A stretch of DNA of 61,750 nt from Phycisphaerae bacterium. GTDB lineage: Bacteria > Planctomycetota > Phycisphaerae > Tepidisphaerales > Tepidisphaeraceae. The DNA lies in assembly GCA_025924315.1 (NCBI GenBank), contig JAICIO010000027.1, positions 1 to 61,750 of the forward strand, written 5' to 3'. The position numbers and the translations under genes were made by a program. Below are positions 5,158 to 60,161 of this stretch, piece after piece. Every line of letters begins with the position of its first letter. The first letter of the stretch is position 1. The notes beneath the pieces are model-generated. The model had not been told where the DNA came from, did no database searches, and saw nothing but the letters and a program-made list of their open reading frames with translations.

Positions 5158-5231
5158 GTAGGGTCCGCTTCAGCGGACCGGTTACTAGTCGTTCGAAAAG
5201 CAAATAACCGGTCCGCTGAAGCGGACCCTAC
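5158..5231. repeat. 75-bp palindromic repeat family copy
   Basis: gtagggtccgcttcagcggaccggttac-N19-ataaccggtccgctgaagcggaccctac. Contains the falsely annotated ATG (5203) of the downstream ORF. Confidence 0.85.
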
Positions 5232-34965: not shown

Positions 34966-34990
34966 TAGGGTCCGCTCGAGCGGACCCTAC
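34966..34990. repeat. minimal copy (outer stem only) of the palindromic repeat family
   Basis: tagggtccgctcgagcggaccctac. Confidence 0.6.
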
Positions 34991-35024: not shown

Positions 35025-36011
35025 ATGAGCACGGTCGCCTTCACATGTCCACGATGTTTTTTCACCGCGAATGTATCGGAGGAATTGCGCTATTGTCCGC
35101 ACTGCGGATTGCCGGACGCCATGGACGCCGCGCTCGACCACGAACCGATCGAGGTGACCGTCGGCTCGCAGCGCTTTGAGGTTTTTGACCGCATCGAGAT
35201 CGGCGCGATCAGCACGATCTACCGCTGTCGTTTTCAATCCACAGGGCGGGAGGTGGAAGGAATTTTCAAAATTGCGCGCGATCCGCGCGTGAACGAGCTG
35301 ATCGAGAACGAAGCCCGCTTTCTTCGTCGATTGCATGCGGCGCCCGAGGCCGCACGCTTCACTGCATTCCTTCCCGCGATCGAAGAATCATTTCGGTTTG
35401 GTGACGGATCGTCTGTGCGGCGGCAGGCGAACATTCTGCGAATGCATCCTGAGATTCGATCACCGGACGAGTTGTATTCGCTCGTCGAAATCAAAGCTCA
35501 ATACCCCGATGGCCTCGATCCTCGCGATGTCGCATGGATCTGGCGACGATTGCTGAGCGTCATCGGCCACGTCCACGCGCATGACATTGTTCACACGCAG
35601 GTATTGCCGATGCACGTATTGGTTGAGCCGCGCGAACACAAACTGGTGCTGGTGGACTGGTGTTGTGCGCAGTCGCTTGTCGAACAGCGAGCGCCTACGA
35701 TCATCAGCGGCGGGTATCGAGCCTGGTACAATCGTGCCGGCGGCGCAACGGAGCCGGCGACGCGTGGGCTCGACATTGACTTTGGCGCGCGGTGCATGAT
35801 CGATTTGATGGGAGGCGACCCGGTCGCCGAGACGTTTCCGCTGAATCTCGACCCGGCGCTGCAGCGGTATTTCCAGCGATGCTTGTCCCCGAAGTCGCCT
35901 GGTTCAACCGACGCGTTTCGCCTGCTCGCGGATTTCGACCATCTGATCGAAACGCTTTGGGGCCCGCGGAAATATCGGCCGCTGGAACTCGCGCCCAAGT
36001 CGCGAAAGTAG
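35025..36011 (+). CDS. zinc-ribbon plus protein-kinase-like (possibly pseudokinase) domain protein
   Basis: CPRC...CPHC ribbon. Gly-loop-like GAISTIYRC, IFKIAR (VAIK-like), HAHDIVHTQVLPMHVLV (HRD-like with HTQ), LVLVDWCCAQ (DFG-like DWC). Confidence 0.5.
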   Translation: MSTVAFTCPRCFFTANVSEELRYCPHCGLPDAMDAALDHEPIEVTVGSQRFEVFDRIEIGAISTIYRCRFQSTGREVEGIFKIARDPRVNELIENEARFLRRLHAAPEAARFTAFLPAIEESFRFGDGSSVRRQANILRMHPEIRSPDELYSLVEIKAQYPDGLDPRDVAWIWRRLLSVIGHVHAHDIVHTQVLPMHVLVEPREHKLVLVDWCCAQSLVEQRAPTIISGGYRAWYNRAGGATEPATRGLDIDFGARCMIDLMGGDPVAETFPLNLDPALQRYFQRCLSPKSPGSTDAFRLLADFDHLIETLWGPRKYRPLELAPKSRK

Positions 36012-36027
36012 AAAAGGGAGGTGTGCT

Positions 36028-36984
36028 ATGGGAAGTGGAGTCTGGTCACCGGCGACGTATTTCGACCGAGCCGATCTGCGGGCGCGCACCGGCAAGGATG
36101 TCTTCGATTACAGCAAAGGCGCGCATCGCTCGGGGCAATTGCGTGTGCATCAAACGCTCGATCCGATGCGGCTCGGCGTGCGCGAAAGCCGCGACAGCGA
36201 CGAGCATCCGGACTCGAACGCGATCATCATCGGCCTCGATGTCACCGGCTCGATGGATCGCGTTGTGCGCGGCATTCACGCCGATCTTCCGCGGCTGTTC
36301 GAGCTCCTGCTTGGGCACCGGTACATCCCGCATCCGCAAATTATGTTCGCGGCAGTTGGAGATGCGACATGCGATCGCGTGCCGCTGCAGGTCGGGCAGT
36401 TCGAGTCCGACAATCGCATGGACCAGAACCTCGAGAACATGATTCTCGAAGGCGGCGGCGGTGGGCAGAAGACAGAATCATACGAGCTGATGCTGTATCT
36501 CGCGGCGCGGCACACGTCGATCGACTGCTACGAGAAACGTCAGCGCAAAGGCTATTTGTTCCTGATCGGCGATGAAATGGCATATTCGTACGTGCGCGCG
36601 CAGATTGTGAATCGCGTTTTCGGCGGAGGCGCGCAGGCGGATATTCCGGTCGAGCAGATCGTCGCGGAGGTCAAGGAGCGCTATCAGCTGTACTTCATCG
36701 TGCCGGGCGGCGCGTCGCACGGCGGCGACCGGCAGGTGCTGAATTTCTGGCAGAAGCTCGTCGGCGAGAACAACGTGCTGCGGCTCGATAATCCGAACGA
36801 GACATCGGAATGCATCGGCCTGACGATCGGCGTGAACGAAGGGGCGGTGAATGTCGAGCAGGGCATCGAGCACCTGCGCGCCAAGGGCATCGTCGGCCGC
36901 ACCATCGACGCGATTCGCAGCGCGCTGGGCAGCATCGTGAACGGCGGGCCGGCAACTCCCACCAAGCGCTCGCGCCACTTGTGA
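36028..36984 (+). CDS. von Willebrand factor type A (vWA) domain protein with MIDAS motif
   Basis: IIIGLDVTGSMD (DxTGS). Rossmann-like alternation of strands and helices. 17 nt after the kinase-like gene. Confidence 0.7.
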   Translation: MGSGVWSPATYFDRADLRARTGKDVFDYSKGAHRSGQLRVHQTLDPMRLGVRESRDSDEHPDSNAIIIGLDVTGSMDRVVRGIHADLPRLFELLLGHRYIPHPQIMFAAVGDATCDRVPLQVGQFESDNRMDQNLENMILEGGGGGQKTESYELMLYLAARHTSIDCYEKRQRKGYLFLIGDEMAYSYVRAQIVNRVFGGGAQADIPVEQIVAEVKERYQLYFIVPGGASHGGDRQVLNFWQKLVGENNVLRLDNPNETSECIGLTIGVNEGAVNVEQGIEHLRAKGIVGRTIDAIRSALGSIVNGGPATPTKRSRHL

Positions 36985-38267
36985 TGAACAAGGCTCCGCG
37001 AGCATTTCAAGTGGTGGATCTTGCCTTCGGCGACTGCGGGAAGGGAACGATCGTCGACTTCCTGACGCGCCGCTTCGACGTGCGGGCGGTCGTGCGCTTC
37101 AACGGCGGACCGCAGGCGGGCCACAACGTCGTCACGCCCGACGGCCGGCATCACACCTTCGCGCACTTCGGCAGCGGATCATTCGTTCCCGGCGTCCGCA
37201 CGCTTCTCTCGCGGTTCATGCTGATTGAGCCCTATGCGCTCTTCAACGAGGCGGCGCACCTCGACTCGATCGGCATACGCGATCCGATGCGACTGCTCGA
37301 AATCGACTCGCGATGTCGCGTGATCACGCCGCCGCAGATCGCTGCGAACCGCTTGCGCGAGCTCGCCCGCGGCGCGAATGCCCACGGCACCTGCGGAATG
37401 GGCGTCGGTGAAACGGTCGCCGATTCGATTGCGGATCCAAAGCTCGTGCTGCGGGCCGGAGACCTGCGTCACCGTGATCAGCTAGCGCCTCGTCTGCGCG
37501 CCATTGCCGAGAAGAAAGCAGGCGAACTCAAACAAGTCGTAGAAGCATGTCGCGAGATTCCGCGCGCCGTTCCGTCGATTGAAACGTTGCAGGATCTGCG
37601 CTGGATCGACGCGGCGATCGAGACATCCGCGGCTCTTTCGCGCGAAGCATCGATCGTTGACGCCCTAACGATTCCTGCCGACAGCAACGTAATCTTTGAG
37701 GGCGCTCAAGGCGTGCTGCTGGACGAAACCGCCGGATTCCACCCGCACACGACCTGGAGCACGACGACGTTTGCGAACAGCGATCGGTTGCGGGATGAAC
37801 TGCAATCTCCGCTGAATCGCCTCCGAATCGGCGTGTTGCGATGCTATTTCACGCGTCATGGCCCGGGCCCCTTCGTCACAGAAGATGATTCGATTCGCGC
37901 AAGACTGCCTGAACTTCACAACGATGCAAGCGGCTGGCAGGGCATGTTCCGCGTCGGCCACTTCGACTGCGTCGCGGCACGATATGCGATGGAAGCCTGC
38001 GGCGGGGTAGACGCGCTCGCCGTCACGCATCTTGATCGGTGGGCGGCGATTTCGAATCAGGTGTGCGATGCCTATGAACGCGATGGTGCCGGCATAACGG
38101 AACTGCGGCCGGACACGCCACTCGATGAATACCGGCCGATTTACAAGCGCGTCGGGGATCGAGAAGAAGAGTTCCTGAAGTATCTGGAAGAACAGTTAAA
38201 CGCGCCGGTGGCGATTCGTTCGTTCGGGCCAACCTATCTGGAAAAATCGCTGCCCAAAGAGATTTGA
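36984..38267 (+). CDS. divergent adenylosuccinate synthetase (PurA)-family protein, translationally coupled to the vWA gene
   Basis: GDCGKGTIVD (compare GDEGKGKIVD), GGPQAGHN (compare GGHNAGHT), FEGAQGVLLDETAGFHPHTTWSTTTFAN (compare [25 protein letters not shown]). The start ATG overlaps the vWA stop (TGATG). Confidence 0.7.
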   Translation: MNKAPRAFQVVDLAFGDCGKGTIVDFLTRRFDVRAVVRFNGGPQAGHNVVTPDGRHHTFAHFGSGSFVPGVRTLLSRFMLIEPYALFNEAAHLDSIGIRDPMRLLEIDSRCRVITPPQIAANRLRELARGANAHGTCGMGVGETVADSIADPKLVLRAGDLRHRDQLAPRLRAIAEKKAGELKQVVEACREIPRAVPSIETLQDLRWIDAAIETSAALSREASIVDALTIPADSNVIFEGAQGVLLDETAGFHPHTTWSTTTFANSDRLRDELQSPLNRLRIGVLRCYFTRHGPGPFVTEDDSIRARLPELHNDASGWQGMFRVGHFDCVAARYAMEACGGVDALAVTHLDRWAAISNQVCDAYERDGAGITELRPDTPLDEYRPIYKRVGDREEEFLKYLEEQLNAPVAIRSFGPTYLEKSLPKEI

Positions 38268-41846: not shown

Positions 41847-42770
41847 ATGACATCGCCCAATTTGATTCTCTCGGTCGGCACGCAGGTGGTCGTGTTGATC
41901 GAAGCGCGCGGGCCGGATGGAAAGCCGGTGCATCCCCGCGGAGCGGTCGGGGTGATCGTGCAGGCGCCGGCGGACTACTGGCACAGCTATCGCGTGAAGT
42001 TTCCGGATGGCTTCGAGGCGTCGTTCAAGCGCACGGAGCTGGCGATCCTCTCGCACTACAAGCAAGGCGACATGGCTGGCGAGCAGCAGCTTGCGGAGTA
42101 CAACCTGTACGATCGCGTGATCTATCGCTGCGTGATTGGTTCGCGCGCCTACGGGCTCGATCACGACGAAAGCGATACCGACCGCCGCGGGGTTTACCTC
42201 CCTCCGGCGGAGTTGCAGTGGTCGCTCTATGGTGTGCCGGAGCAGTTGGAGAATCCCGAAACCGAAGAGGTGTATTGGGAGCTGCAGAAATTTTTGACGC
42301 TGGCGCTGAAGGCGAATCCGAATGTGCTGGAGTGTCTTTATACGCCAATCGTAGAACATGCATCGGAGATCGCCCAGGAGTTGCTCGCGATGCGCGCGAG
42401 CTTTCTCTCGAAGATGGTGTATCAGACGTACAACGGCTATGTGATGAGCCAGTTCAAGAAGTTGCAGGCGGACCTTCGCAACAAGGGCGAGGTAAAGTGG
42501 AAGCATGTGATGCATCTGATTCGCCTGCTGATCAGCGGGGTGACAGTGCTTCAGGAAGGGTTTGTGCCGGTGCGCGTCGAGGAACATCGTGAAAAACTGC
42601 TGGCGATCAAACGCGGAGAAGTCGCCTTTGAAGAAGTTGAGCGGTGGCGATTGGAGCTGCACCGGCAGTTTGATGCGGCGAGCGAATCGACGAACCTTCC
42701 GGAGCGGCCGGATTATGAGGCGGCGAATGGGCTATTGCTTACCGCGCGCCGCTCGGCGCTGGCCATGTAG
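41847..42770 (+). CDS. nucleotidyltransferase-fold protein (Pol-beta superfamily, RlaP-like) with N-terminal extra domain
   Basis: GSRAYGLDHDESDTDRRGVY, of the G[SG]x9-13Dx[DE] type. Adjacent paralog downstream. Confidence 0.5.
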   Translation: MTSPNLILSVGTQVVVLIEARGPDGKPVHPRGAVGVIVQAPADYWHSYRVKFPDGFEASFKRTELAILSHYKQGDMAGEQQLAEYNLYDRVIYRCVIGSRAYGLDHDESDTDRRGVYLPPAELQWSLYGVPEQLENPETEEVYWELQKFLTLALKANPNVLECLYTPIVEHASEIAQELLAMRASFLSKMVYQTYNGYVMSQFKKLQADLRNKGEVKWKHVMHLIRLLISGVTVLQEGFVPVRVEEHREKLLAIKRGEVAFEEVERWRLELHRQFDAASESTNLPERPDYEAANGLLLTARRSALAM

Positions 42771-42836
42771 CACGGGCACCTTGCCCGTGCCGATCACGGC
42801 TTGAGCCGCAAATGCACGGGCTGGTACCCCGTGCTA
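42766..42836. repeat. inverted pair of GCACGGG...CCCGTGC hairpin units (loop variants)
   Basis: gtagcacgggcaccttgcccgtgc-N24-gcacgggctggtaccccgtgctac. Lies between the two nucleotidyltransferase paralogs. Confidence 0.8.
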
Positions 42837-42852
42837 CGAAAAGGAGGGCACG

Positions 42853-43589
42853 ATGAATCCTTCATTGCATAAAATCGTTCGTGAACAACCCTATCCGCTG
42901 CTCTTCGCGACGATCAGCGGGGCGCATTTGTATGGCTTTCCCTCGCCGGACTCGGATTTTGATCTGCGTGGCGTGCATTTGCTGCCGGTGCGCGAGGTGC
43001 TCGGGCTGAAAACCCCGCGCGAGACGATTGAGGTTTCGGGGATGTACGACGGGATCGAGATGGATCTTGTCACGCATGACGCGAAGAAGTTCTTCTCGCT
43101 GCTCTTGAAGAAGAACGGTTATGTTCTGGAGCAGCTGTATTCGCCGCTGATCGTGCACACGACGCCGGAGCACGAGGAACTGAAGCGCATCGCCCGCGGA
43201 AGCATCACGCGCATCATTACTTCGGATTCGCGGAAACGCAGTGGAACCTGTTCGAGAAGGAACATCCGCGGCGGGTGAAGCCGCTGTTGTACGTGTATCG
43301 AGTGCTGCTGACGGGAATTCACCTGATGCGGGCCGGCGAGGTCGAGCCGAATCTCGTGCGGCTGAATGAGGAAGCGAAATTGCCGTACATCGACGAACTG
43401 GTGCGGCGGAAGCTGAGCGGGCCGGAGCAATCGCGGCTCGACGACGCGGACATGCCGTTTCATCGGGCGGAGTACGAGCGGTTACGCGGCGAATTGCAGA
43501 AGGCATTTGAGGCGAGCGCGCTGCCGGAGAATCCATCGGCGCAGGATGGGCTGAGCGACCTTCTGATCCGGCTGCGGATGGCGACATGA
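42853..43589 (+). pseudogene. second nucleotidyltransferase paralog, split by a frameshift near 43200
   Basis: 42853-43278 carries GAHLYGFPSPDSDFDLRGVH. After about 43200 the homology to paralog 1 continues in the frame of ORF 43275-43589; HYFGFAETQWNLFEKEHPRRVKPLLYVYRVLLTG aligns to YNGYVMSQFKKLQ...KWKHVMHLIRLLISG. Confidence 0.4.
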
Positions 43590-43595
43590 AGTCTC

Positions 43596-43670
43596 GTAGG
43601 GTCCGCTTAAGCGGACCGGTTACTCATTCGCTCGAAAGATAAATAACCGGTCCGCTGAAGCGGACCCTAC
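43596..43670. repeat. 75-bp palindromic repeat family copy
   Basis: gtagggtccgcttaagcggaccggttac-N20-ataaccggtccgctgaagcggaccctac. Confidence 0.85.
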
Positions 43671-50453: not shown

Positions 50454-52097
50454 ATGGATCCGCTCTACACGTTCACGCTCTCACACGACGGCACGCCGGC
50501 TTCTTACGACGAATCGCTCGCCGTCGCCTGCTTGCAAGGCCTCATCAATCGCGACGCGCCGCGGTTGTATGTGCTGTCCAAGAAGAACGCGCGGCCGCAA
50601 TACTGGCTCGACATTCTCTCGAAGAACAATCGCTGGCTCGCGGGGCGGGAGCTTCACGCGATCGAGGATCTCGATGGATTGATCAAGCTCACCGGCGACA
50701 AGCTGAAAGGCGCGGTCATCTGGGACCCTGAAGTTCCCGCCACCGTGAACGTCGCGACGACGATCGCGGGGATCGAGGACGGCGTTGTGCTCAGTCCCGA
50801 GTTGCACCAATCGTCATCGCTCCCGGTCCTCCACGATCTTCGCGGAAGATCCACCGGATCCGAGACCGGAAGCAAAAAGAACGACGCCTATCGCTGGGCG
50901 ATTCGCGAGTACCTCGACAAGAACCTCTGCTCGTCGAAATTTCTCTGCCTTTATGAAGATTCGTTTACGATGCGCGCCAAGGGCGACATCGGCTACATCC
51001 TCACGCGCGACTGGGCAGTGAAGAATCATTCGTTCGTGTTCGACCTTTCACCATGGCCGGACGAAGCGCCCGCCGATGACCCGGATCAGAAGATCGGCAT
51101 CGATTATGAAACGTACCAGATGATCCTCGACCGCATTGGCAAATCCGCCGGCGGAAAGCACATGACGGAGATGACCGGCTTCTTCGCGTTCACCAAATAT
51201 TCGAGTGAAGGTGGCCGCAAGAGCAAGCATCTCCCGGTGCCGACGGAATGGCAAACGGTGTGGATCATCTCGCCGCACAACACCTATCAGAACACCATCT
51301 CGAGCGATTGTTTCAATCAGTCGCTGCACAGCCAGGCCCCGCGAAAGCCGCTCAAGCAGAAGTTCAACAGACCTCCGCTGCCGAAGCTCGAGAACAAAGC
51401 GTACGTCGCGATTCTCATGGCGGATTACGATTCCGCGACGCCGCTCTACGATTTTCTCCCGTCGCATTGGGACGACGCGCAGCGCGGCACGTCGCCGTTT
51501 ATCTGGGGCATGAATCCGAATCTCATTGACACGTATCCGGACCTCATTGCTTACTTTTACGAGACGGCGACGAGTGCGGATACGTTCGGCTCCGATGCAA
51601 GCTGCGCGGGGTACATGAATCCAAACTCAATCCGCAAAGAATCGCTTCCGCTGTTCACCGCGCACAACAAGAAATACTTTACCGAAGCCGACATGACGAT
51701 CGCGCCGATGGTGCTCGACCAGGATCAGCCCTCGCCCGACGTGAAGGATGCGTTCGCACAATTCGCGCCCCAGGGGATGGCATGCTTCGTCGATGACCAG
51801 CATGGCACAGGCGGAAAATTCCCGCCGCCGCAGGTTTGGAAGGGCATGCCGGTCATCGAATTGATGAACGAGCCGTGCAATTCAAAAAGCCCGGAAGAAC
51901 TCGCGACGGCGTTCGCGCGGCGCATCACGGCATATCGCCCCGGTTCACCGCTCTTCTGCATCTTCCGCTGCGTGTGGGTGAATCCGTCCGCGGTAAAAGG
52001 CGGGCTTGAACTGCTGAAGAAGCAGAACCCAAACCTACCAATCGAGGTGGTCGATCCGCACACGTTCTTGTCGCTGTTCAAAGTGTGGAAGTCGTAG
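50454..52097 (+). CDS. hypothetical protein (possible carbohydrate-active enzyme), function unknown
   Basis: 547 aa with good coding signal. No motif recognized with confidence. Located next to the sulfatase. Confidence 0.45.
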   Translation: MDPLYTFTLSHDGTPASYDESLAVACLQGLINRDAPRLYVLSKKNARPQYWLDILSKNNRWLAGRELHAIEDLDGLIKLTGDKLKGAVIWDPEVPATVNVATTIAGIEDGVVLSPELHQSSSLPVLHDLRGRSTGSETGSKKNDAYRWAIREYLDKNLCSSKFLCLYEDSFTMRAKGDIGYILTRDWAVKNHSFVFDLSPWPDEAPADDPDQKIGIDYETYQMILDRIGKSAGGKHMTEMTGFFAFTKYSSEGGRKSKHLPVPTEWQTVWIISPHNTYQNTISSDCFNQSLHSQAPRKPLKQKFNRPPLPKLENKAYVAILMADYDSATPLYDFLPSHWDDAQRGTSPFIWGMNPNLIDTYPDLIAYFYETATSADTFGSDASCAGYMNPNSIRKESLPLFTAHNKKYFTEADMTIAPMVLDQDQPSPDVKDAFAQFAPQGMACFVDDQHGTGGKFPPPQVWKGMPVIELMNEPCNSKSPEELATAFARRITAYRPGSPLFCIFRCVWVNPSAVKGGLELLKKQNPNLPIEVVDPHTFLSLFKVWKS

Positions 52098-52154
52098 GGT
52101 GTGCTTCAGCACACTATCCTCGCCCACAAAACGGTGTGCTGAAGCACACCCTAC
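52094..52154. repeat. palindromic repeat family, GTGTGC variant
   Basis: gtagggtgtgcttcagcacac-N19-ggtgtgctgaagcacaccctac. Confidence 0.8.
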
Positions 52155-53899
52155 TTGCGTGTGACATACAGGTAATATGCGCCGCAAAGTTCAGCTCCCG
52201 CTGAATCGTAAAACCAAGTTTTTGCGCGTATCGTTCCTGGCTTGAGGTGCATCGTGAACCGCACCGACTTGTCGCTCGACTTCACATCGTTTGTGACTTC
52301 CTGATCCCCAACCACAAGCTTCGCCTTCGCGATCGGCAGCGCTTTCCCGGCGGGGTATTCACCATCAACGAACTTCATCGGCGGAACGCCAGCATCGATC
52401 GCCACATCCGCTTCCCGTGGCCAGCGCCGAAGCTCGAACGTATAATCGCCTTCCGTCGTCACTTCGATCCCCCACGGCGCATTGCGATTCGGCCCCGCCC
52501 GCACTTCCTTCTGCTGATCCATGATCCGGTTCTGCCAATCCGCCACCGAGAGCATCACCGGCTGCGTCGTCTTGCCAATCGGAATCGTGCTCAGCTCATT
52601 GACTCCTGGTTCGATGTCCGCCCACCACGTGTCGTAATGTGCGCGCATCTTCGCGACGATGTCCGGATGATCGGCGGCGATGTTGTGGTCCTGGCTGAGG
52701 TCGGCTTTGATGTCGTAGAGGTCAGTCCCGTTCGTCAGCCGCCAGTTTTTCCAGATCACTGTGCTGTCGTACTTCGCGGGAATCGGCTTATTCATCCTGC
52801 TGAACTGCACGACGAGCATGCGATCAGGCAGATGCGCCTGCTCGCCGCGCAGAAGGGGCGATAAGCTAACACCCGAAAGCTTCGAATCGGTTGGAGATTT
52901 TAACTCGCACCAATCCACGAGCGTCGGAAAAAGATCCTGCACTTCGATCAGTTCCGAAACATCACGCGCATCACCCAGATTTCCCCCGGGCCAGCGCACA
53001 AAACACGGGACGCGATGCCCGCCTTCCCACAGCGTCACCTTTCCGCCTTTCATTCCAGCGTTAAAAGTCTTCACGCCGTACGTTCCGCCGTTGTCGGTGA
53101 GAAAAATCAGGATCGTGTCGTCGCGCAACCCCGCTTCCTGCAGGAGATCTTCCAGCCGCCCCATGTTCTCGTCGATGTTCGCGATCATCGCGTAAAAGCT
53201 CGCGAGGTTGTGATCGAGCTTCCGATACGGCTCGCGATATTTGTCCGGAACAAACAGCGGCGCGTGGGCGGCGTTCAGTGGGAGATAGACTAAGAAGGGT
53301 TGTTTCGCCTCCGCCCGCTCGCGCATCCACTTCATCGCTTCATTGAAATAAATGTCTGTGCAGTAGCCCCCGAACTTCTTTTTCGACCCATTCTCAAGTC
53401 TCAGCGTCGGATTGAAGTAATCGTTGTTCCACTCATCCGGAGCCGAGCTCATATGCGACGATGGAAACCAGATCGCTTTCTCAAACCCACGATCCTGCGG
53501 CCGATACGGCTCGACATCGCCCAGATGCCACTTCCCAAACATCGCCGTGCGATATCCACCGCCGCGAAACACATCCGCCATCGTCGGAATCCCGCGGCGA
53601 AGCATCGAGCGTCCGCTACTGACATTCATCGCCCCGTTGTCCAGCGCATCGCGCCCGCTCATCAGCTGCGAGCGGGTCGGTGTGCACATCGGGCTGACGT
53701 GAAAATCGGTGAAGCGGATCGATTGATCGTGTAATCGATCGCAATTCGGCGTCTTCACGATCGGCGAACCATTGCATGAAAAATCGCCATAGCCGACATC
53801 GTCCACGAGCACGATCAGCACGTTGGGCTTGGTTGAAGCGAATGCGGGAAGGGAAGTGAATGCGCAAATCACGAACAGGAAACGTAAGGTTCGCAACAT
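52151..53899 (-). CDS. formylglycine-dependent sulfatase (arylsulfatase family), secreted
   Basis: Signal peptide. KPNVLIVLVDDVGYGD and CTPTRSQLMSGR (C-x-P-x-R). Confidence 0.85.
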   Translation of the reverse strand: MLRTLRFLFVICAFTSLPAFASTKPNVLIVLVDDVGYGDFSCNGSPIVKTPNCDRLHDQSIRFTDFHVSPMCTPTRSQLMSGRDALDNGAMNVSSGRSMLRRGIPTMADVFRGGGYRTAMFGKWHLGDVEPYRPQDRGFEKAIWFPSSHMSSAPDEWNNDYFNPTLRLENGSKKKFGGYCTDIYFNEAMKWMRERAEAKQPFLVYLPLNAAHAPLFVPDKYREPYRKLDHNLASFYAMIANIDENMGRLEDLLQEAGLRDDTILIFLTDNGGTYGVKTFNAGMKGGKVTLWEGGHRVPCFVRWPGGNLGDARDVSELIEVQDLFPTLVDWCELKSPTDSKLSGVSLSPLLRGEQAHLPDRMLVVQFSRMNKPIPAKYDSTVIWKNWRLTNGTDLYDIKADLSQDHNIAADHPDIVAKMRAHYDTWWADIEPGVNELSTIPIGKTTQPVMLSVADWQNRIMDQQKEVRAGPNRNAPWGIEVTTEGDYTFELRRWPREADVAIDAGVPPMKFVDGEYPAGKALPIAKAKLVVGDQEVTNDVKSSDKSVRFTMHLKPGTIRAKTWFYDSAGAELCGAYYLYVTRK

Positions 53900-54075
53900 G
53901 CGAGCAATCTACCCGAAGATTTGAACGACCGGTTGCAGTCGCGTATGATTTCCCGCCATTGCGGGTGTAACTCAATTGGCAGAAACAGATTTAGCTTGAC
54001 AGCCTTCTGCGGGGACGGTTTTTCGGGGAAATTGCGGGAAAATTAAAGGCGGACGACGCTGAGCTAATCGCGGGA

Positions 54076-54312
54076 TTACTCGGGGTTCTTTTTGCGCTCC
54101 GCGCTTTCAACCAGTAGACTCGCTACAGCCATTCGAAGGAATTCGACGCGCCGATGAACTTCGGGAAGCTGACCAAAGAAGATCGTCTCGTTAAACGGTT
54201 TGTTTTCGCGGTCTTTCCCTAGAACGGTAATGAAGCCAGAATCTGTGTTCGCCATATTTCCAACTACGGGAAACAACGCTGACGCGCGCTTGTAGGCATC
54301 GTCGTAGGTCAT
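54076..54312 (-). CDS. hypothetical protein
   Basis: 78-aa ORF in a lower-GC region. No motifs. Confidence 0.3.
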   Translation of the reverse strand: MTYDDAYKRASALFPVVGNMANTDSGFITVLGKDRENKPFNETIFFGQLPEVHRRVEFLRMAVASLLVESAERKKNPE

Positions 54313-54538
54313 AGCTGGAATTAGACCGCTATGCCGATTCGAACGCCAGAGAAAACATCGAAGCTCGACTATAGCAATCGTCCGAACGTCAGCGCGCGAT
54401 GGTTTCGCATCGCGCGGTGGTGGGGCTGCCGAGTCTATCGAGCGATCTCTTCATTTATGTTCGGCGCATATCCCGGCGAGCAATGATCATCATAGGGGAA
54501 CGCTCCCGTACCAACGACGAGCGCTCCCCTATAACCTC

Positions 54539-55222
54539 CTACTTATCCTCTTTTGTCGTCTTGAATGTGTTCCCCAGGTTCTTCAGAAGCTTGTCCAAAG
54601 CGTCTACGCGATCACTCGCGGTATCGCTGGTTGCTGGTTTAGCGCCGGATGTCGGGGTCGTCTGATTCGTCGTGTTGCCGGTTCCCGGTTTATTGCCTGT
54701 TGACGTTCCATCTTCCTTACCGGTTCCCGGTTTATTGCCTGTTGACGCTCCATCGTCCTTACCACTTCCGCCCGATACGCCCGTTACGGCATCATGAGCT
54801 AATGTACCACTGGTTGCGAATACAGGGTTTTTGAACGTGATCGTGATCGTGTTTCCCCGCGCGTATGTTTTGGAATTGGATGAAGTGTCGGAGATGCTTC
54901 CCTTAACAGGGATGATCGCAGGCGGAGAAATATCTGCCGAGACAGTCAAAGATTTCGAGTCTGTTCTCGATCCCTGCACATTGAAAGTTACCGTTACCTC
55001 GTCCGCATAGAGACCGAAAGACTTGTCAGTGGGTTCGGTTGTAGGATGCGCCGCGTCCTGCGGAGGGTGCGCCGCGTCGTGCATCAAACGTAGACCTGTC
55101 CCGACCTGCTTCAAAGCGTCCTCTAACGTAATCTCGTTAATCTCATCGTGCTTCATGGAATGGCATCCGCCGGAAGCGATGAGAATTGCCAAGACTGGCA
55201 ACAATCCGAATTTGACTGACAT
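54539..55222 (-). CDS. lipoprotein with Gly/Thr/Lys/Pro-rich repeats
   Basis: GGGAGG RBS, lipobox ASGGC. Repeats GTSTGNKPGTGKEDGTSTGNKPGTG. Confidence 0.45.
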   Translation of the reverse strand: MSVKFGLLPVLAILIASGGCHSMKHDEINEITLEDALKQVGTGLRLMHDAAHPPQDAAHPTTEPTDKSFGLYADEVTVTFNVQGSRTDSKSLTVSADISPPAIIPVKGSISDTSSNSKTYARGNTITITFKNPVFATSGTLAHDAVTGVSGGSGKDDGASTGNKPGTGKEDGTSTGNKPGTGNTTNQTTPTSGAKPATSDTASDRVDALDKLLKNLGNTFKTTKEDK

Positions 55223-55406
55223 ACAACCTCCCATTGAGGAATTGAAATGAGCGGACGAATGTTCGTCCGCTAGGCGAAGGGTACTTCGAGCGAACCGCGA
55301 GACACGATAAGTTGCCGATTTAGCGACATACCCAGAACAGGGTAATTGACCCGACGACGGAACAGCCTTCGAGCGTGTCAGCACGCCGACCTGCATGATT
55401 CCACAT

Positions 55407-55579
55407 CACTTTGCCTTACGTGCGGTAACGTATCCAAGAATGACGAGCGCGCCGGAAAGGAAGGTGGTCGCAATCTCCCACTTGCCGCAAATGACCCCAT
55501 AAATGGCGGTCGCAACCACCGCGACGTACGTAATGAGAATGATAAAATCCGTAACGGGCTGTTTGGGATGTTTAGGCAT
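55407..55579 (-). CDS. putative 57-aa two-TM small membrane protein (holin-like size class)
   Basis: MPKHPKQPVTDFIILITYVAVVATAIYGVICGKWEIATTFLSGALVILGYVTARKAK. Below the ORF-track length cutoff; found by manual translation. Confidence 0.25.
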
Positions 55580-56039
55580 CGGTTTCCTCGGCAGACGGAG
55601 AAAGAAATCTCAGTCGCCGAATCAACCAACGCTGAGCGATTAACGGGAAGCGGGCGCTGCGTTAATCAACTTGCGGGAGGAAGATTCAGGCTCAACTTCT
55701 ATCGCGTATCGAATCGAACGTTGATGCCCGCGTTCCGATGCTCTCTGTTTGGTATCCTGCCAGTTTCTCACCAGCGGTTGACGCCAGAGCATCCGCCAAA
55801 ATCATACTCAATACTCTATAACGTATACTCGTCTCGACGACGCCCGAAGGCGACGCCACAGGCACATTATGTGCGTATTCGGGAATTGTCCAGCCGATTT
55901 TTACCCTCGAAAATATCACCGAAAATCCGGCGGGAATTAGCTTGATGATCTCAGCGAACTCGGGCCCAGTGATTCACGTTATCACGACGGTCGTGATAAC
56001 AAGATAATCCAAACAGCCCGAAAGGGCAGGAGCAGTCAG

Positions 56040-56486
56040 ATGGCAACGGAAACCAAAGCGGCGAAGGCAAAGACAGACGCTTTTAAGCGAATCGCAGTCG
56101 GGAAGGTTCAAACGGTTAAGGCGAGCGAGATCGTTCGCCAGAATGCGAACCAGAAGCCCCGGAACGCTTCGGGCGAGAATCCGTACAGGGAGGGAGGATC
56201 ATATCATGCGGTAGTAAGCGGGCTTCGATCGCTGGGGCTTAACCGCCTGCATTCATTCGACGCGATTGTGCCTGCCGTCCGCAAGGCGATGGGCAGCGCG
56301 TACAAAGCGTTCGCCAGGAAGGATGCCCGCAACGATGAGACAGGCAAAGACGCCCGCGAGCGAATCATACAGAACGTTTCGGTGGTCGCTCGAAAGGATT
56401 ACGGCGCTCCGCTCCGCAAGGTCGGTTTTGAGGTTCGCTACGACGGACGCGAGAAACAGGCGGGATTGTTTCGACTGAGTAAGTAA
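56040..56486 (+). CDS. hypothetical protein
   Basis: 148 aa, Lys/Arg-rich. Followed by two tandem terminators. Confidence 0.4.
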   Translation: MATETKAAKAKTDAFKRIAVGKVQTVKASEIVRQNANQKPRNASGENPYREGGSYHAVVSGLRSLGLNRLHSFDAIVPAVRKAMGSAYKAFARKDARNDETGKDARERIIQNVSVVARKDYGAPLRKVGFEVRYDGREKQAGLFRLSK

Positions 56487-56509
56487 CACGGATGAACGCA
56501 CGGAAGCGT

Positions 56510-56540
56510 AGCCCCGGCCCTTGCGGCTGGGGCTTTTTTG
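56510..56540 (+). terminator. intrinsic terminator
   Basis: agccccggcc cttgc ggctggggct followed by TTTTT. Confidence 0.5.
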
Positions 56541-56627
56541 TTTGAAGGAATCCGAGCGCGCGAGAGGAAGTAGATGATGTTCTTTCGTAGAGCCAGCAGC
56601 GTCTGCTGGGATTCCTGAGCGGACTAG

Positions 56628-56658
56628 GCTTGCGTCATGTTCCCTAGTCCGCTTTTTT
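56628..56658 (+). terminator. intrinsic terminator (second, tandem)
   Basis: gcggactagg-N14-cctagtccgc followed by TTTTTT. An A-tract on the other side means it could act bidirectionally. Confidence 0.45.
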
Positions 56659-56665
56659 AATGCGC

Positions 56666-57079
56666 TCATCGCTTGTGAAGATCTCGGAAAACCTTTTCAA
56701 GCTGCTTAATAAATCCATCGCCTCTGCGGCAACGCTCTAGCTCAGCGTTGAAATTCGCAACCGTCCACCATCGGCTGTTCCGCCCGTACTTGGCTTGCCA
56801 GTTCCAGTAAAGGTGATAGACATTCACCGAAGGATTACCACTATCAAGCCACGTAAAGCGCCCGACCTCGCAGAATAACTTTCTTCCATGCGCATTCCGG
56901 CGCTTCGGGCCGGGGTTTTCATTAAAGGCGATTTCGAATTCTTCGGGCAACGTTTGACATCGTTGCATGAGACGCGCGAAAGCGAGCGCTTGATCTGCTG
57001 CTGAGTCCATCCGTTCGATGCGTTCTAGTTCCCCTTTGCGTTCTGAATCCGTGGGTTTGCGGGGTCTTTTTTCTCGCAT
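56666..57079 (-). CDS. hypothetical protein
   Basis: 137 aa, Trp/Arg-rich. No motif. Confidence 0.4.
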   Translation of the reverse strand: MREKRPRKPTDSERKGELERIERMDSAADQALAFARLMQRCQTLPEEFEIAFNENPGPKRRNAHGRKLFCEVGRFTWLDSGNPSVNVYHLYWNWQAKYGRNSRWWTVANFNAELERCRRGDGFIKQLEKVFRDLHKR

Positions 57080-57133
57080 GGCAGAAGTTCGCGCACCACT
57101 AATTTAGCGATTGGCAGCGACCGCGTACACCGG

Positions 57134-57700
57134 TTGTCGCTTTCGGCTACCAGTTCGCCCGATGAGAAGGGCAGACGCTTTCAGTTCTATAGCGATTCGA
57201 TCATTTGGACGCCCGAAGTTCTCGCATTATGGAGCCACGAGCTCGCGTTTCCGCTCGGATCTACTGGCAACCTAACGCTTCGGATGCTCCCGATTGATGA
57301 CAGAGGGCAGCCGGTCGAGATCGATGTGCCGAATACAACTGTCGGTAATGATACTTTCGAGAATGTTCGTAGTCGTCTCGCTCGCGGCATGAGCTTTAGC
57401 GGTCTGATGCTGGTGAAAAGTCTTTCACCTGTACCTGATCAGCCGAATACCTATCGCGTGGGGAAGGGCGGATTCATCGCCAACGAAGTGACCGTAACCG
57501 TCGCGCCATCCATGAAGGAAACCAGCATCGAAGTAGCGCCTGCGACTGCTGAGCAGCAGACCCACAGCGAACCGGCCACCGATTCGTCTCAAAAACAAAA
57601 TTCAGATCAACAGAAGGAACTCAGAAGGCAGCAGCAGAAATTAGATGAGTACAAGCTGATGCTTCTGAGGCCAGGCAAAGTATCTGTGCAAGGGAGCTGA
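57134..57700 (+). CDS. putative phage prohead protease (HK97 / peptidase S78-like) with Gln/Glu-rich C-terminal tail
   Basis: GRRFQFYS (compare RAFRFE), VLALWSHELAFPLG (compare LLWQHD..PIG), SFSGLMLVKSL (compare GLSIGF), FIANEVTVTVAPSMKE (compare EISLVTFPANPEA). The start may be earlier and non-ATG. Confidence 0.4.
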   Translation: MSLSATSSPDEKGRRFQFYSDSIIWTPEVLALWSHELAFPLGSTGNLTLRMLPIDDRGQPVEIDVPNTTVGNDTFENVRSRLARGMSFSGLMLVKSLSPVPDQPNTYRVGKGGFIANEVTVTVAPSMKETSIEVAPATAEQQTHSEPATDSSQKQNSDQQKELRRQQQKLDEYKLMLLRPGKVSVQGS

Positions 57701-57727
57701 GAATTGTGAACAAGGTTTTTCACTCCC

Positions 57728-58927
57728 ATGATCGATATCAATGTAATCCGCGCTCAGTTCGCGGACATTCACGCAGAAGCAGTAAAGTTCGCTGAAGACA
57801 ACAAAGAAAAAGAAGTGCCCGCCGAAGAGCAGGCAAAGCAGGAAGCGCGTTTCTCGCAGATGGACAAGCTCCAGAAGCAGCTAAACGACGCTGAAAAGCT
57901 TCTCGCCTACAAGTTCTCTAAAAACGAAGTCCAAGTTTCCGAAAAGAAGCCTGATCAGATCGCTTTCGAGAAGTCTGAAAACATCGAACCGAAGCAGTTC
58001 GATTTCGACAACGAAGATGATCGGAAATCTTTCGGTAAGGCGCTTGGACGTTGGGCAACTGACGGCGCTATGCCCGCCGAATTCTCGACCCTCACGACCG
58101 CGACGTCTTCGAGCGCATATCTTCCGAAGCAGGTAACCGGCGGCTCGACCATTGTCGCTGGTAACTCCATCCGTGAAGGTATGGCTGCTGTTGGCGCTAC
58201 TCCTGTTTCGCTCGGTAGCACTGCCGATTGGAATGAAATCGTCATCCTTCCTGCTGCTGGTTCTGACCTCACGGAAGGTAACGATAGCGGTGGCGAAAAT
58301 AACAGCGATGGTTCGGCTGCTTTCTCCAAGATCAATCTGAAGTGCTACGGCGAGAAGTCGGGGCAGATTTGGATTTCGAATATGGAATCTCGGGCCGTCA
58401 ACATCAACCTGCTCGATAGAACCGTTCCGGCGCTTCAGGGTGCTAAGGAACTTCGCCTCGAAACCAAAGTTCTGTCGGCAATGGCTGCTGACGGCGGGAT
58501 CACGCGAGTGACTCAAACCACGGGCGACGTATACGCCGACTTGAGCGCGCTCAACAACTCTCTGCCGAAAGCATTCGACCGACAGAAGTTCATCGTTTTG
58601 AACTCTGAGTATTATGCGGATGCTGTCGCATTCCGTGGTGCAGACGGTCACCCTGTTCTGATCACCGATCCTCAGAATCAAACGCTGGTTCGCTTCAATG
58701 GAACGCCGGTCATTAAGACTGACGCTCTAAGCGGCGAAGGGAGCAATAACATCGTTGGACTCTTGATCTCTTGCGTTGGGTTCCGCCTTCGCGATGAAGA
58801 TCCTGTCGAAGTTATTCGTTACCCGAACGATCCAGCTCATACGGGCGACACCGGTTTGGATCTAGTTGCTTACCACTCGCACGGCTACCTGCCGCAGTCG
58901 GTGGCTAAGCTCGAATTCGAATCGTAA
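57728..58927 (+). CDS. phage major capsid protein, HK97-like fold, with N-terminal coiled-coil delta-like domain
   Basis: N-terminal coiled coil of about 100 aa. Core blocks INLKCYGEKSGQIWISNMESRAVNINLLD and ELRLETKVLSAMAADGG match the HK97-family pattern. Strong terminator downstream. Confidence 0.6.
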   Translation: MIDINVIRAQFADIHAEAVKFAEDNKEKEVPAEEQAKQEARFSQMDKLQKQLNDAEKLLAYKFSKNEVQVSEKKPDQIAFEKSENIEPKQFDFDNEDDRKSFGKALGRWATDGAMPAEFSTLTTATSSSAYLPKQVTGGSTIVAGNSIREGMAAVGATPVSLGSTADWNEIVILPAAGSDLTEGNDSGGENNSDGSAAFSKINLKCYGEKSGQIWISNMESRAVNINLLDRTVPALQGAKELRLETKVLSAMAADGGITRVTQTTGDVYADLSALNNSLPKAFDRQKFIVLNSEYYADAVAFRGADGHPVLITDPQNQTLVRFNGTPVIKTDALSGEGSNNIVGLLISCVGFRLRDEDPVEVIRYPNDPAHTGDTGLDLVAYHSHGYLPQSVAKLEFES

Positions 58928-58943
58928 TTAAAACGGATGTAGT

Positions 58944-58981
58944 CCCCGCGCGGTGTACCCCATCGCGCGGGGATTCTTTTT
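58944..58981 (+). terminator. intrinsic terminator after the capsid gene
   Basis: ccccgcgcg-N11-cgcgcgggg followed by ATTCTTTTT. Confidence 0.55.
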
Positions 58982-58986
58982 CAACG

Positions 58987-59478
58987 ATGAGATGGGAAAA
59001 GACAACACGACCCGCTTCGCTTTTCGCTTGGAAGGATTTCAAGCCGCATGTTCGCGTTGACTCCGACGAAGAGCGAACTCTGGTGGAGAATGTCTACGTT
59101 CCTGCCGCAACTGCACGAGCTGAAGAGCTGCTGCAAATGTCGCTGATGGAGCGGCAGATAACCGCCACGTTCTGGCGAGAAGACCTGATGCATTCGAACT
59201 ATATCTATCACCAGCATCTTTACGTTCGGCTTCCTCGCGGGCCTGTCGTAGATGCTTCAAAGATTGCGAGCGTAGTCGATTCGGAAAATACATCCCTCGA
59301 ACACGAACTGTATCGCGTCGGGAATTCAGACCGAATTCGTTTGATATCGCATACGACGCATTACCCGATCGCAGAATCGCCACGATGTTCCCGGCGAGCA
59401 CTTCATGCAGAACGCCTTCGAAGCGAAAGCAGAAGAGGCAAAGGATGTCATCATTCAACAACTGAAACAGGGAATTGA
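58987..59478 (+). CDS. putative phage head-tail connector (gp6-like); 3-prime end ambiguous
   Basis: ERTLVENVYVPAATARAEELLQMSLMERQITATFWRED resembles gp6-like connectors. From about 59355 another frame reads a plausible helical C-terminus (EHFMQNAFEAKAEEAKDVIIQQLKQGIERELQR) ending 1 nt before the next gene. Confidence 0.35.
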   Translation: MRWEKTTRPASLFAWKDFKPHVRVDSDEERTLVENVYVPAATARAEELLQMSLMERQITATFWREDLMHSNYIYHQHLYVRLPRGPVVDASKIASVVDSENTSLEHELYRVGNSDRIRLISHTTHYPIAESPRCSRRALHAERLRSESRRGKGCHHSTTETGN

Positions 59479-59497
59479 GCGGGAGCTGCAGCGATAA

Positions 59498-59896
59498 ATG
59501 CCAGAGATCGAAGCGATCATCTTTCGTCGCCTCAACAGCAACTCCGAACTTCGTGCGGAAGTGAAGGGAAACATTTTCCCTGAGTACCGCGAAGATCGGA
59601 TACCGGCTCTTTGCATCGACATGACGATTCTGGATTCTGAAGAGGGTTATGAAGGAACCGGACTGGTTCAGTATGAACTAACTATTAGCGTTTTCGCGCA
59701 GGACTACCCGACTGCGGCAGAGATCGGCGGACTTGTTGTCAACGATTTACACCGCGCGAGCTGGGTCGATGGGAGCTACGTCATTGACGGCGCTTACTAC
59801 AAAGACCGCGACGGTGGGGTGAAGCCTGTTGTTAATGCTCGCGACGATGCCGGAGCGATTGATCTTCGTTTCGATGTTGTCGTGAAAATGACTTAG
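59498..59896 (+). CDS. putative phage tail-completion / DUF3168-like protein
   Basis: 132 aa. MPEIEAIIFRRLNSNSELRAEVKGNIFPEY...IPALCIDMT pattern, plus position after the connector. Confidence 0.3.
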   Translation: MPEIEAIIFRRLNSNSELRAEVKGNIFPEYREDRIPALCIDMTILDSEEGYEGTGLVQYELTISVFAQDYPTAAEIGGLVVNDLHRASWVDGSYVIDGAYYKDRDGGVKPVVNARDDAGAIDLRFDVVVKMT

Positions 59897-59909
59897 GAGT
59901 TTCGAGAAA

Positions 59910-60161
59910 ATGACAGAAGCAATGGGCGGAAAGAATACGAAGATCGGCTTTTCAGACAATGCCGATGGCCCGTTTACATACTTAGCGGAAGCGTTGGATC
60001 TGCCGTTTCCAGAAGCAAAGGGCGATCACTTCGTTGCCACGAATTACGACAGTGGCGATGCAGAAGAAAAAGTAGACACGGGGTTCGTCGATATCTCGGA
60101 CTACAACTTTTCCATCATCTACACGGATGACAAGGCCGGATGGAACTTTCAGCGCCGGTGA
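59910..60161 (+). CDS. hypothetical protein, possibly the N-terminal part of the downstream Cys-rich gene
   Basis: Frame 0. Protein-like to its stop at 60161. Overlaps the frame-1 ORF by 35 nt. Confidence 0.3.
   Translation: MTEAMGGKNTKIGFSDNADGPFTYLAEALDLPFPEAKGDHFVATNYDSGDAEEKVDTGFVDISDYNFSIIYTDDKAGWNFQRR

Follow-up and report, generated by a model that had tools for sequence, protein, structure and literature searches.

The stretch of DNA analysed here, referred to as the window, comprises 61,750 nt (positions 1 to 61,750 of contig JAICIO010000027.1, GenBank assembly GCA_025924315.1, from a Phycisphaerae bacterium). Its plus strand carries three co-oriented open reading frames (ORFs) that encode a kinase-like protein (35025-36011, 328 aa), a von Willebrand factor A (vWA)-fold protein (36028-36984, 318 aa) and a PurA-superfamily enzyme (36984-38267, 427 aa), and the three genes are translationally coupled. 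The kinase-like gene ends with TAG at 36009-36011 and is followed by a 16-nt spacer (36012-36027, plus strand) with the Shine-Dalgarno sequence GGGAGG at 36016-36021 ahead of the vWA start codon, ATG at 36028. The vWA stop codon, TGA at 36982-36984, overlaps the ATG of the PurA-like gene at 36984-36986 in a TGATG arrangement, and the 427 aa were counted from that ATG. An earlier reading of the sequence alone had described the three tightly packed plus-strand genes with the same coordinates and the same TGATG overlap, but its gap of 17 nt at the first junction measured 16 nt. The locus is also present in NCBI assembly GCA_025927995.1, where the kinase-like gene was called 96 nt too short (L002 5090, versus window positions 35025-35120); the resulting 296-aa product is without the conserved Zn ribbon, and the longer ORF is backed by homologues. 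These three genes represent a widespread phage and bacterial module built around a rewired PurA enzyme, and the module is real and robust.

The PurA-like protein matched PF00709 with an E-value of 2.4e-64. Its AlphaFold2 (AF2) model (pLDDT 86, pTM 0.88) was compared with known structures by Foldseek, and this gave a TM-score of 0.8 to E. coli PurA and other full-length PurA enzymes (1cg3/1ade), but only 0.5-0.6 to PurZ and archaeal enzymes. The profile match and the fold confirm the family assignment of the sequence-only reading, which had named the GDCGKG, GGxxAGH and FEGAQG blocks. The strong divergence from housekeeping PurA that it described was also borne out. The identity to E. coli PurA is about 30%, and the protein scored 176 bits with the NCBIfam purA model NF002223 (equivalog cut-off 402), 156 bits with TIGR00184 (cut-off 395) and 35.8 bits with the PurZ model NF038379 (cut-off 300).

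Active-site residues were compared by pairwise alignment to 1ade and then across 82 bacterial and 73 viral homologues (155 sequences), with E. coli numbering used for the family. The P-loop GDCGKG (37029-37046, plus strand, as are all motifs below) was invariant in both sets, and its D17 and K20 correspond to the catalytic base D13 and to K16. H47 in QAGH (37113-37124, within GGPQAGH) corresponds to the catalytic acid H41, and Q242 in EGAQG (37698-37712, within FEGAQG) corresponds to Q224, which contacts the 6-oxopurine. Asp13 was kept in 155 of 155 sequences, and His41 and Gln224, which the sequence-only reading had listed with Asp13 as residues to inspect, are likewise retained family-wide. 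The guanine-specificity motif THLD (38025-38036) contains D351, equivalent to D333, with His in place of K331. Residues that were invariant or nearly so in the family are G12, D13, G15, K16, G17, D21, A39, H41, E221-G-A-Q224-G, D229, T239, R272, G274, G276, P277, R306, G308, D333, S414 and G416. Because these residues are maintained, the GTP-binding and carbonyl-phosphorylation machinery is under selection.

In canonical PurA, residues T300, T301, R303 and R305 hold L-aspartate or hadacidin (1CG0-type complexes), and K140, R143' and T129 serve the IMP phosphate. In the window protein, alignment to 1ade places ASGWQGMFR (37926-37952) opposite the E. coli aspartate loop FGATTGRRR, such that T300 is replaced by W318, T301 by Q319 and R305 by F322, and R303 is deleted. 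The same changes were found throughout the family, with T301 replaced by Gln in 154 of 155 sequences, R303 deleted in all 155, T300 replaced by Trp, Phe or Tyr and R305 by Phe, Leu or Ile in nearly all, giving a loop that reads [WFY]-Q-G-x-[FLI]-R instead of TTGRxR. Elsewhere in the site, N38 is Gln in 154 of 155 sequences (Q44 in the window), V273 is His in 155 of 155, T129 is Cys or Val, P135 is mostly Glu, S240 is Trp or Arg, and K331 is His or Cys. Where canonical enzymes have the signature GI[GR]PxYxxKxxR, the window protein reads GVGETVADSIAD, and across the family K140 is changed to Ser or Ala and R143 is variable. As judged from these alignments, the aspartate pocket is rebuilt into a conserved surface of aromatic, amide and hydrophobic character. 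Since the aspartate loop is replaced and the residues for the IMP 5'-phosphate are lost, the enzyme should be neither an adenylosuccinate synthetase nor a PurZ.

The distribution of the genes was examined in one genome per GTDB species. At least 467 relatives were found, the best 80 of them at 42-54% identity, in Planctomycetota, Myxococcota, Chloroflexota, Actinomycetota, Saccharibacteria and other candidate phyla radiation (CPR) bacteria, Beta- and Gammaproteobacteria, Bacteroidota and Fibrobacteria. By tblastn and HMM searches of 82 bacterial loci from at least seven phyla, the vWA gene adjoined the PurA-like gene in 77. Of the other five loci, three are cut off by a contig end, and the two genuine exceptions, L001 and L061, have neither a vWA nor a kinase gene within 10 kb of the PurA-like gene. 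The kinase-like gene was present at 63 of the 82 loci, and the order was nearly always kinase, vWA, PurA-like. The linkage is far beyond chance, since it recurs across phyla and in phages, and pairwise distances of the vWA and PurA-like proteins were correlated (r = 0.77, 144 pairs). None of the window's other neighbours was syntenic at any other bacterial locus examined, which argues that the cassette moves as a unit. Rhodococcus, Variovorax and Tsukamurella carry copies on megaplasmids, pRHL1 of Rhodococcus RHA1 among them. An NrtR-type regulator, which combines a Nudix-like domain with an NrtR winged helix, recurs as a fourth gene in Actinomycetota, in CPR bacteria and in a few viral contigs. 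It was found at L065:7068-7805, L083:9280-9924, L167:10323-10952, L095:7243-7995, L019:4279-4953 and other loci, often translationally coupled to the cassette; in Rhodococcus the Nudix box of the regulator is degenerate.

The proposal that the three genes form a unit therefore held in bacteria and, as described below, in phages, with the vWA/PurA-like pair conserved across phyla and the kinase present at most bacterial loci. The accompanying idea of a signalling or defence module was upheld only as far as a functional unit is concerned. A defence-island context was not found among 160 loci, where the sole recurrent neighbours were a second vWA paralogue and the NrtR-like regulator. We regard it as almost certain that the genes constitute an accessory mobile module and not a housekeeping purA.

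All three proteins matched phage protein families, namely PHROG 3043 ('kinase', E 1e-24), PHROG 2971 (unknown function) and PHROG 1211 (labelled PurZ-like) for the kinase-like, vWA and PurA-like protein, respectively. A scan of IMG/VR with a vWA alignment returned more than 437 relatives, and a single-sequence vWA query returned none. Among the best 80 viral loci, chosen by vWA similarity, 78 have a PurA-like gene just downstream with the same active-site signature, and about 44 have the pseudokinase. When all ORFs of 83 viral and phage loci were clustered, no conserved neighbour was found besides the vWA, kinase-like and NrtR-like genes. The module was identified in a 485-kb uncultured phage and, among isolated phages, in those of Mycobacterium cluster C1 (201 Bixzunavirus phages), Vibrio (phiKT1024) and Rhizobium (RHph_TM*).

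In the Bixzunavirus phages, Bxz1 gp247-250 and Dandelion gp267-270 are the same module, with Dandelion gp267 as the kinase, gp268 as the vWA protein and gp270 as 'PurA', and with gp248 as the Bxz1 vWA protein. The Bxz1 PurA homologue is gp250 (PMC2771037), and a 'PurA homologue' in Bxz1-like phages has been noted in genome announcements and classification papers (PMC2771037, PMC9476963). The phage vWA protein is 42% identical to the window protein, the PurA-like active-site signature is the same, and the module is present in all C1 phages. The phage copies differ in having a J domain in place of the Zn ribbon, a further small ORF between the genes for the vWA and PurA-like proteins and, in some, intein or HNH insertions in the vWA gene. 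These genes are annotated only as 'kinase', 'hypothetical' and 'PurA', and a functional study of them was not found in the literature. The small intervening phage ORFs encode 60-90 aa (L164:6020-6286, which is Dandelion gp269, and L165:5971-6153 in phiKT1024), are not conserved in the family and have no Pfam match. The cassettes of RHph_TM39 (L166:555-2158) and phiKT1024 (L165:174-2422 and 9566-10798) have nucleotide- and NAD-related neighbours, which include phosphoribosyltransferase-like, NMN adenylyltransferase/Nudix, anaerobic ribonucleotide reductase, NADAR and TROVE genes.

The vWA protein (PHROG 2971) belongs to a family of 2079 clusters at 50% identity without a Pfam model. The protein has the Rossmann-like vWA fold; a profile search of PDB sequences with the family gave no match, and a fold search was required. 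Its metal ion-dependent adhesion site (MIDAS) motif DVTGS (36238-36252; D71, T73 and S75) is completed by D182 of a GDE motif, and these columns are invariant in the family, in agreement with the intact DxTGS motif that had been pointed out from sequence alone. Directly before the first vWA strand lies a RESRDSxxHPxS motif (36181-36216), in which R52, E53, H60 and P61 are invariant. The C-terminal tail of the family ends in a conserved Arg.

All vWA homologues, bacterial and viral alike, share one N-terminal motif. The window protein begins with MGSGVWS (36028-36048), and the family motif is M-G-[GSY]-[GS]-x-[WYF]-[SDN], counted in 144 vWA/PurA-like pairs that carry it. Nearly all homologues, in bacteria as in viruses, have the motif at their first start codon, and in longer upstream vWA ORFs it lies at an internal Met, in register with the other homologues. 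For vWA relatives retrieved from 1.84 billion representative sequences, the alignments start at residue 1 of both query and target, and N-terminal extensions or fusions are thus essentially absent. In an AF2 model built on an alignment of database homologues, residues 1-8 had a pLDDT below 50 and are predicted to be disordered, as is the C-terminal tail. Removal of Met before Gly is standard, and therefore the mature protein should expose a free Gly amine.

Several variants of the vWA gene were observed. Two vWA paralogues are present at 17 loci, mostly from Myxococcota (L011, L012, L015, L016, L022, L023, L029, L031, L034, L035, L048, L055, L058, L060, L063, L068 and L070), and both copies keep the N-terminal motif and the MIDAS. 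In Myxococcota an Arg-rich C-terminal tail distinguishes the long form from the short one, and both have the N-terminus MGYG.YS. In part of the C1 phages (for example Pinkcreek, Sauce and ET08) the vWA gene is split after about residue 176, at the site of an annotated HNH endonuclease, and the 581-aa metagenomic homologue P0348 has a Hint/intein module spanning residues 173-250. This intein-like insertion is located at the conserved GYLF/GDE strand. A Rosetta-stone fusion search with the vWA family yielded only the intein (Hint) insertion and unannotated C-terminal extensions.

The first gene encodes a protein with an N-terminal CPxC...CPxC Zn ribbon (CPRC...CPHC with C8, C11, C24 and C27, at 35046-35105 by family alignment) followed by a protein-kinase-like domain. 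The Pfam Pkinase match to the window protein was weak, but the family profile matched CK2-alpha with an E-value of 2.5e-15 and with the catalytic loop aligned. The window protein keeps the VAIK Lys (K82) and the alpha-C Glu (E96), and has HTQ (190-192) in place of HRD, His197 in place of the catalytic-loop Asn and DWC (211-213) in place of DFG/DWG. In 62 bacterial and 44 viral homologues, the HRD Asp, which is Gln in the window, is Ala or Gly in 89 of 106 sequences. Leu, Asn or Thr stands at the position of the catalytic-loop Lys, His at that of the Asn and, in most cases, Gly or Ser at that of the DFG Asp. Among the bacterial members, K82 and E96 show hardly any variation. On these residues the protein is to be regarded as catalytically dead throughout the family, and the degenerate Zn-ribbon kinase fold that had been read from HTQ and DWC is supported by both the CK2-alpha match and the family tally. 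Since the VAIK Lys and the alpha-C Glu are kept while the catalytic Asp is lost, nucleotide binding has probably been preserved in the pseudokinase. The Zn ribbon gives way to a J domain with an HPD motif in Chloroflexota, Actinomycetota, CPR bacteria and mycobacteriophages; the DnaJ Pfam match reached 34.9 bits in L020 and was weaker elsewhere, including Dandelion gp267. In profile comparisons, the proteins encoded 5' of the vWA gene in phiKT1024 and RHph_TM39 were not detectably kinase-like.

Compared with canonical PurA (EC 6.3.4.4; E. coli 1ADE/1CG0), the enzyme shares the fold, the P-loop, Asp13, Lys16, His41, Gln224, Thr239 and Asp333/Ser414, and GTP-dependent phosphorylation of the purine C6 carbonyl is likely to be shared as well. 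In contrast, the TTGRxR loop, K140, R143, T129, N38, V273 and S240 of canonical PurA are changed or lost and, unlike purA, the PurA-like gene is paired with a vWA partner on mobile elements and in phages. PurZ and PurZ0 are likewise phage-borne PurA homologues repurposed away from AMP synthesis, but they are short, archaeal-type enzymes that travel with DatZ, MazZ, DutZ or DpoZ, whereas the PurA-like enzyme is full length and travels with the vWA protein and the pseudokinase. DatZ, MazZ, DutZ, DmtZ or DpoZ genes were not found in the 83 viral and phage loci. Phage PurZ enzymes all have Ser at position 13 and still condense aspartate (PMC12884076), and PurZ was for that reason excluded as the identity of an enzyme that retains Asp13 and has no aspartate site. 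The analogy to PurZ in the sequence-only reading fails at the same two points.

A precedent is known from the type IV CBASS system. There, a CD-NTase with the N-terminus M(G/S)G(G/S)GG receives 7-amido-7-deazaguanine (NDG) on its Gly2 from the QueC-like Cap9 (10.1101/2025.04.06.647259). Both systems combine a purine-biosynthesis enzyme that normally uses a small amine with a partner that has an invariant, flexible, M-G-(G/S)-rich N-terminus. They differ in the enzyme (QueC/PP-loop versus PurA/SIMIBI P-loop) and in the acceptor (CD-NTase Cap9 substrate CdnD versus vWA protein), and here a conjugation can only be proposed. A QueC-like ligase, a TGT-like transferase (Cap10) and a CD-NTase are all absent from the cassette, and the module is thus an analogue and not a member of type IV CBASS conjugation.

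The TerY-P triad consists of the TerY vWA protein, a PP2C phosphatase and a Ser/Thr kinase with a Zn ribbon (PMC11090510). It resembles the present module in that a mobile three-gene cassette places a Zn-ribbon kinase-fold protein beside a cytoplasmic vWA protein with a MIDAS. TerY-P has an active kinase with a C-terminal Zn ribbon/OB fold, whereas here the kinase is dead, the Zn ribbon is N-terminal and the third gene is PurA-like. No PP2C phosphatase cluster was found in the 82 bacterial or 83 viral loci, and the vWA protein had no PADLOC or Pfam TerY match. The assignment to TerY-P, a system of the kinase/vWA/phosphatase type, was rejected on these grounds. The view that the combination is undescribed agrees with full-text literature searches, in which a functional description of the module was not found, although a passing mention in a 2012 Ter-system paper is possible. 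The module appears to fit no described kind of system, and we infer its activity and role from the conserved features above.

We consider it fairly probable that the enzyme couples an activated 6-oxopurine nucleotide to an amine other than aspartate. That it is a non-aspartate PurA-type ligase acting on or with its vWA partner is a reading to which we give a little less than even weight. In the scheme that we favour, GTP would drive the activation of the purine C6 carbonyl by phosphorylation, and an amine other than aspartate would then attack. The preferred candidate is the alpha-amino group of Gly2 on the disordered vWA tail, and the tail may alternatively be a docking peptide. Ligation to Gly2 would leave the vWA N-terminus carrying an N6-(protein)-linked purine nucleotide, an addition of 330 Da if the substrate is IMP. 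The pseudokinase could act as a nucleotide-binding scaffold or reader of the tagged tail, recruited via its Zn ribbon or, where a J domain is present, via DnaK, and the vWA protein would contact a target through its MIDAS face. Gly2 is the most economical candidate because it explains the pairing with a non-enzyme, the strict N-terminus and the peptide-friendly aromatic pocket, and the analogy with CdnD is in its favour. Its role as the amine acceptor is nevertheless to be taken as possible but doubtful, and the complete scheme of N-terminal purinylation, with a GTP-dependent ligase joining purine C6 to the vWA Gly amine and the pseudokinase as reader or scaffold, is correspondingly tentative and on balance unlikely. 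A role in phage-host conflict or host takeover is suggested by the spread over lytic jumbo-type phages, megaplasmids and scattered chromosomes, and this could be either defence or counter-defence; since the module is abundant in large lytic phages, bacterial defence is only one possible role.

A number of observations weigh against a ligase that works on or with its vWA partner. About 8 bacterial loci with enough flanking sequence lack the pseudokinase, as do about half of the viral loci. At L001 and L061 the enzyme may work alone. Mutual information between vWA N-terminal and PurA-like active-site columns was dominated by high-entropy columns, with only the R143-equivalent ranking high, and favours neither side. 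The loss of Arg143, Lys140 and Thr129 could mean that the substrate is not a free 5'-mononucleotide, and the conserved N-terminal Gly could serve docking or stability instead. The NrtR-like fourth gene would suit a small-molecule nucleotide product no less well than a conjugate.

The NrtR-like regulator and the two loci without a vWA gene speak for a small-molecule component, and an enzyme that converts IMP-, ITP- or GMP-type nucleotides to AMP or an N6-substituted purine, with ammonia or a small neutral amine, is the alternative to be taken most seriously, if still unlikely. It would serve phage auxiliary metabolism or counter-defence, for example by re-aminating inosine nucleotides produced by deaminase defences, or would make a signalling nucleotide, and the vWA protein and pseudokinase would merely regulate or scaffold. 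CTP synthase, a relative in the same superfamily, aminates a phosphorylated carbonyl with ammonia and gives a precedent for the chemistry. Catalytic residues kept beside an aspartate pocket turned hydrophobic, a recurrent regulator of nucleotide-sensing type, and the NAD-salvage and nucleotide-metabolism genes near the cassette in the Rhizobium and Vibrio phages are all consistent with this alternative. It leaves unexplained, however, why a non-enzymatic vWA neighbour is near-invariant and co-evolving and why that neighbour has an invariant free Gly N-terminus, and no co-occurring lyase, glutaminase or transporter was seen in the examined loci. If the nucleotide substrate were instead part of RNA or DNA, the enzyme would aminate or cross-link the O6 of hypoxanthine or guanine there, with the vWA protein and the Zn ribbon targeting the nucleic acid. 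Many large phages hypermodify their DNA, the cassette is present in large phages and has a Zn-ribbon partner, and the residues that hold the free IMP 5'-phosphate are lost. Yet the phosphate site keeps T239 and Q38, no domain for nucleic-acid binding is shared family-wide, with the J domain replacing the Zn ribbon in many lineages, and no glycosylase, transferase or polymerase partner co-occurs. We judge such a modification to be distinctly improbable.

The kinase-like and vWA proteins could alternatively sense infection, with the PurA-like enzyme as the effector; by depleting GTP or IMP, or by producing a toxic nucleotide, the enzyme would cause abortive infection or host shutdown. TerY-P shows that modules with a kinase and a vWA protein act in defence (PMC11090510), and the patchy spread on plasmids and in phages resembles horizontal gene transfer (HGT). 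PADLOC found the kinase-like protein weakly similar to the defence kinases PD-T4-6 and PglW, a generic kinase similarity only, and gave no match for the vWA or PurA-like protein. Set against this precedent are the missing PP2C phosphatase, the inactive kinase, which is moreover dispensable at many loci, and the lack of a recurrent defence neighbour; depletion alone would also not need a precisely remodelled and conserved amine pocket. A sensor-effector system therefore appears rather improbable. The least probable alternative, to which we give very little weight, is a housekeeping purA in an odd neighbourhood or a PurZ that makes 2-aminoadenine. It draws on the fact that this is the only PF00709 gene within the 61.7-kb window and on database labels of homologues as 'adenylosuccinate synthetase' or '2-aminooxy adenylosuccinate synthetase'. 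Against it stand the family-wide loss of the aspartate loop and of K140/R143, the sub-cut-off scores with both models (176 versus 402 bits for purA, 36 versus 300 for PurZ), the retention of Asp13 where aspartate-using phage PurZ enzymes all have Ser (PMC12884076), the occurrence on plasmids and in lytic phages whose hosts have their own purA, and homologues of 42-54% identity with the same partners in unrelated phyla. The possibility that the real purA had simply been misplaced, which the sequence-only reading had left standing, was dropped because of the replaced loop, the low score, the plasmid and phage carriage and the conserved linkage.

If N-terminal purinylation is correct, the module would be a second and independent example in which an enzyme of purine biosynthesis has been rewired to place a nucleotide on the N-terminus of a protein, would suggest a general route by which conflict systems evolve, and would constitute a hitherto unrecognised nucleotide-protein conjugation system of large phages, megaplasmids and diverse bacteria. 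On a conservative reading, the analysis defines a large unannotated enzyme subfamily, to which thousands of bacterial members now mislabelled as adenylosuccinate synthetase belong, together with a vWA family of about 2000 clusters. Among phage 'PurA' genes, about 330 of 481 fall outside both the PurZ and the canonical PurA groups. The results also give a first functional handle on genes kept in every cluster C1 mycobacteriophage, a system that is tractable in M. smegmatis with Bxz1-like phages. They further serve as a warning that automated metabolic reconstruction wrongly assigns the AMP-synthesis step to such genomes and phages.

The GC content of the cassette equals that of its surroundings. 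A perfect 20-nt palindrome at 34968-34987, upstream of the operon, was real as the sequence-only reading had described it, but it is one of 12 REP-like copies in the window, compared with 0.02 expected by chance, and is unrelated to the operon. These intergenic copies (GGGTCCGC-NNNN-GCGGACCC) start at 5161, 5209, 11279, 12582, 12632, 23051, 25546, 28986, 29034, 34968, 43599 and 43648, and often form pairs spaced about 48 nt apart. A few kb 3' of the cassette, beyond a convergent DLH hydrolase gene and xanthine-dehydrogenase-like genes, three successive plus-strand ORFs at 41847-43600 encode an RlaP (PF10127) nucleotidyltransferase domain. At 52000-60000 of the window, the GC content drops to 0.52-0.56 from about 0.60, possibly the sign of a horizontally acquired segment.

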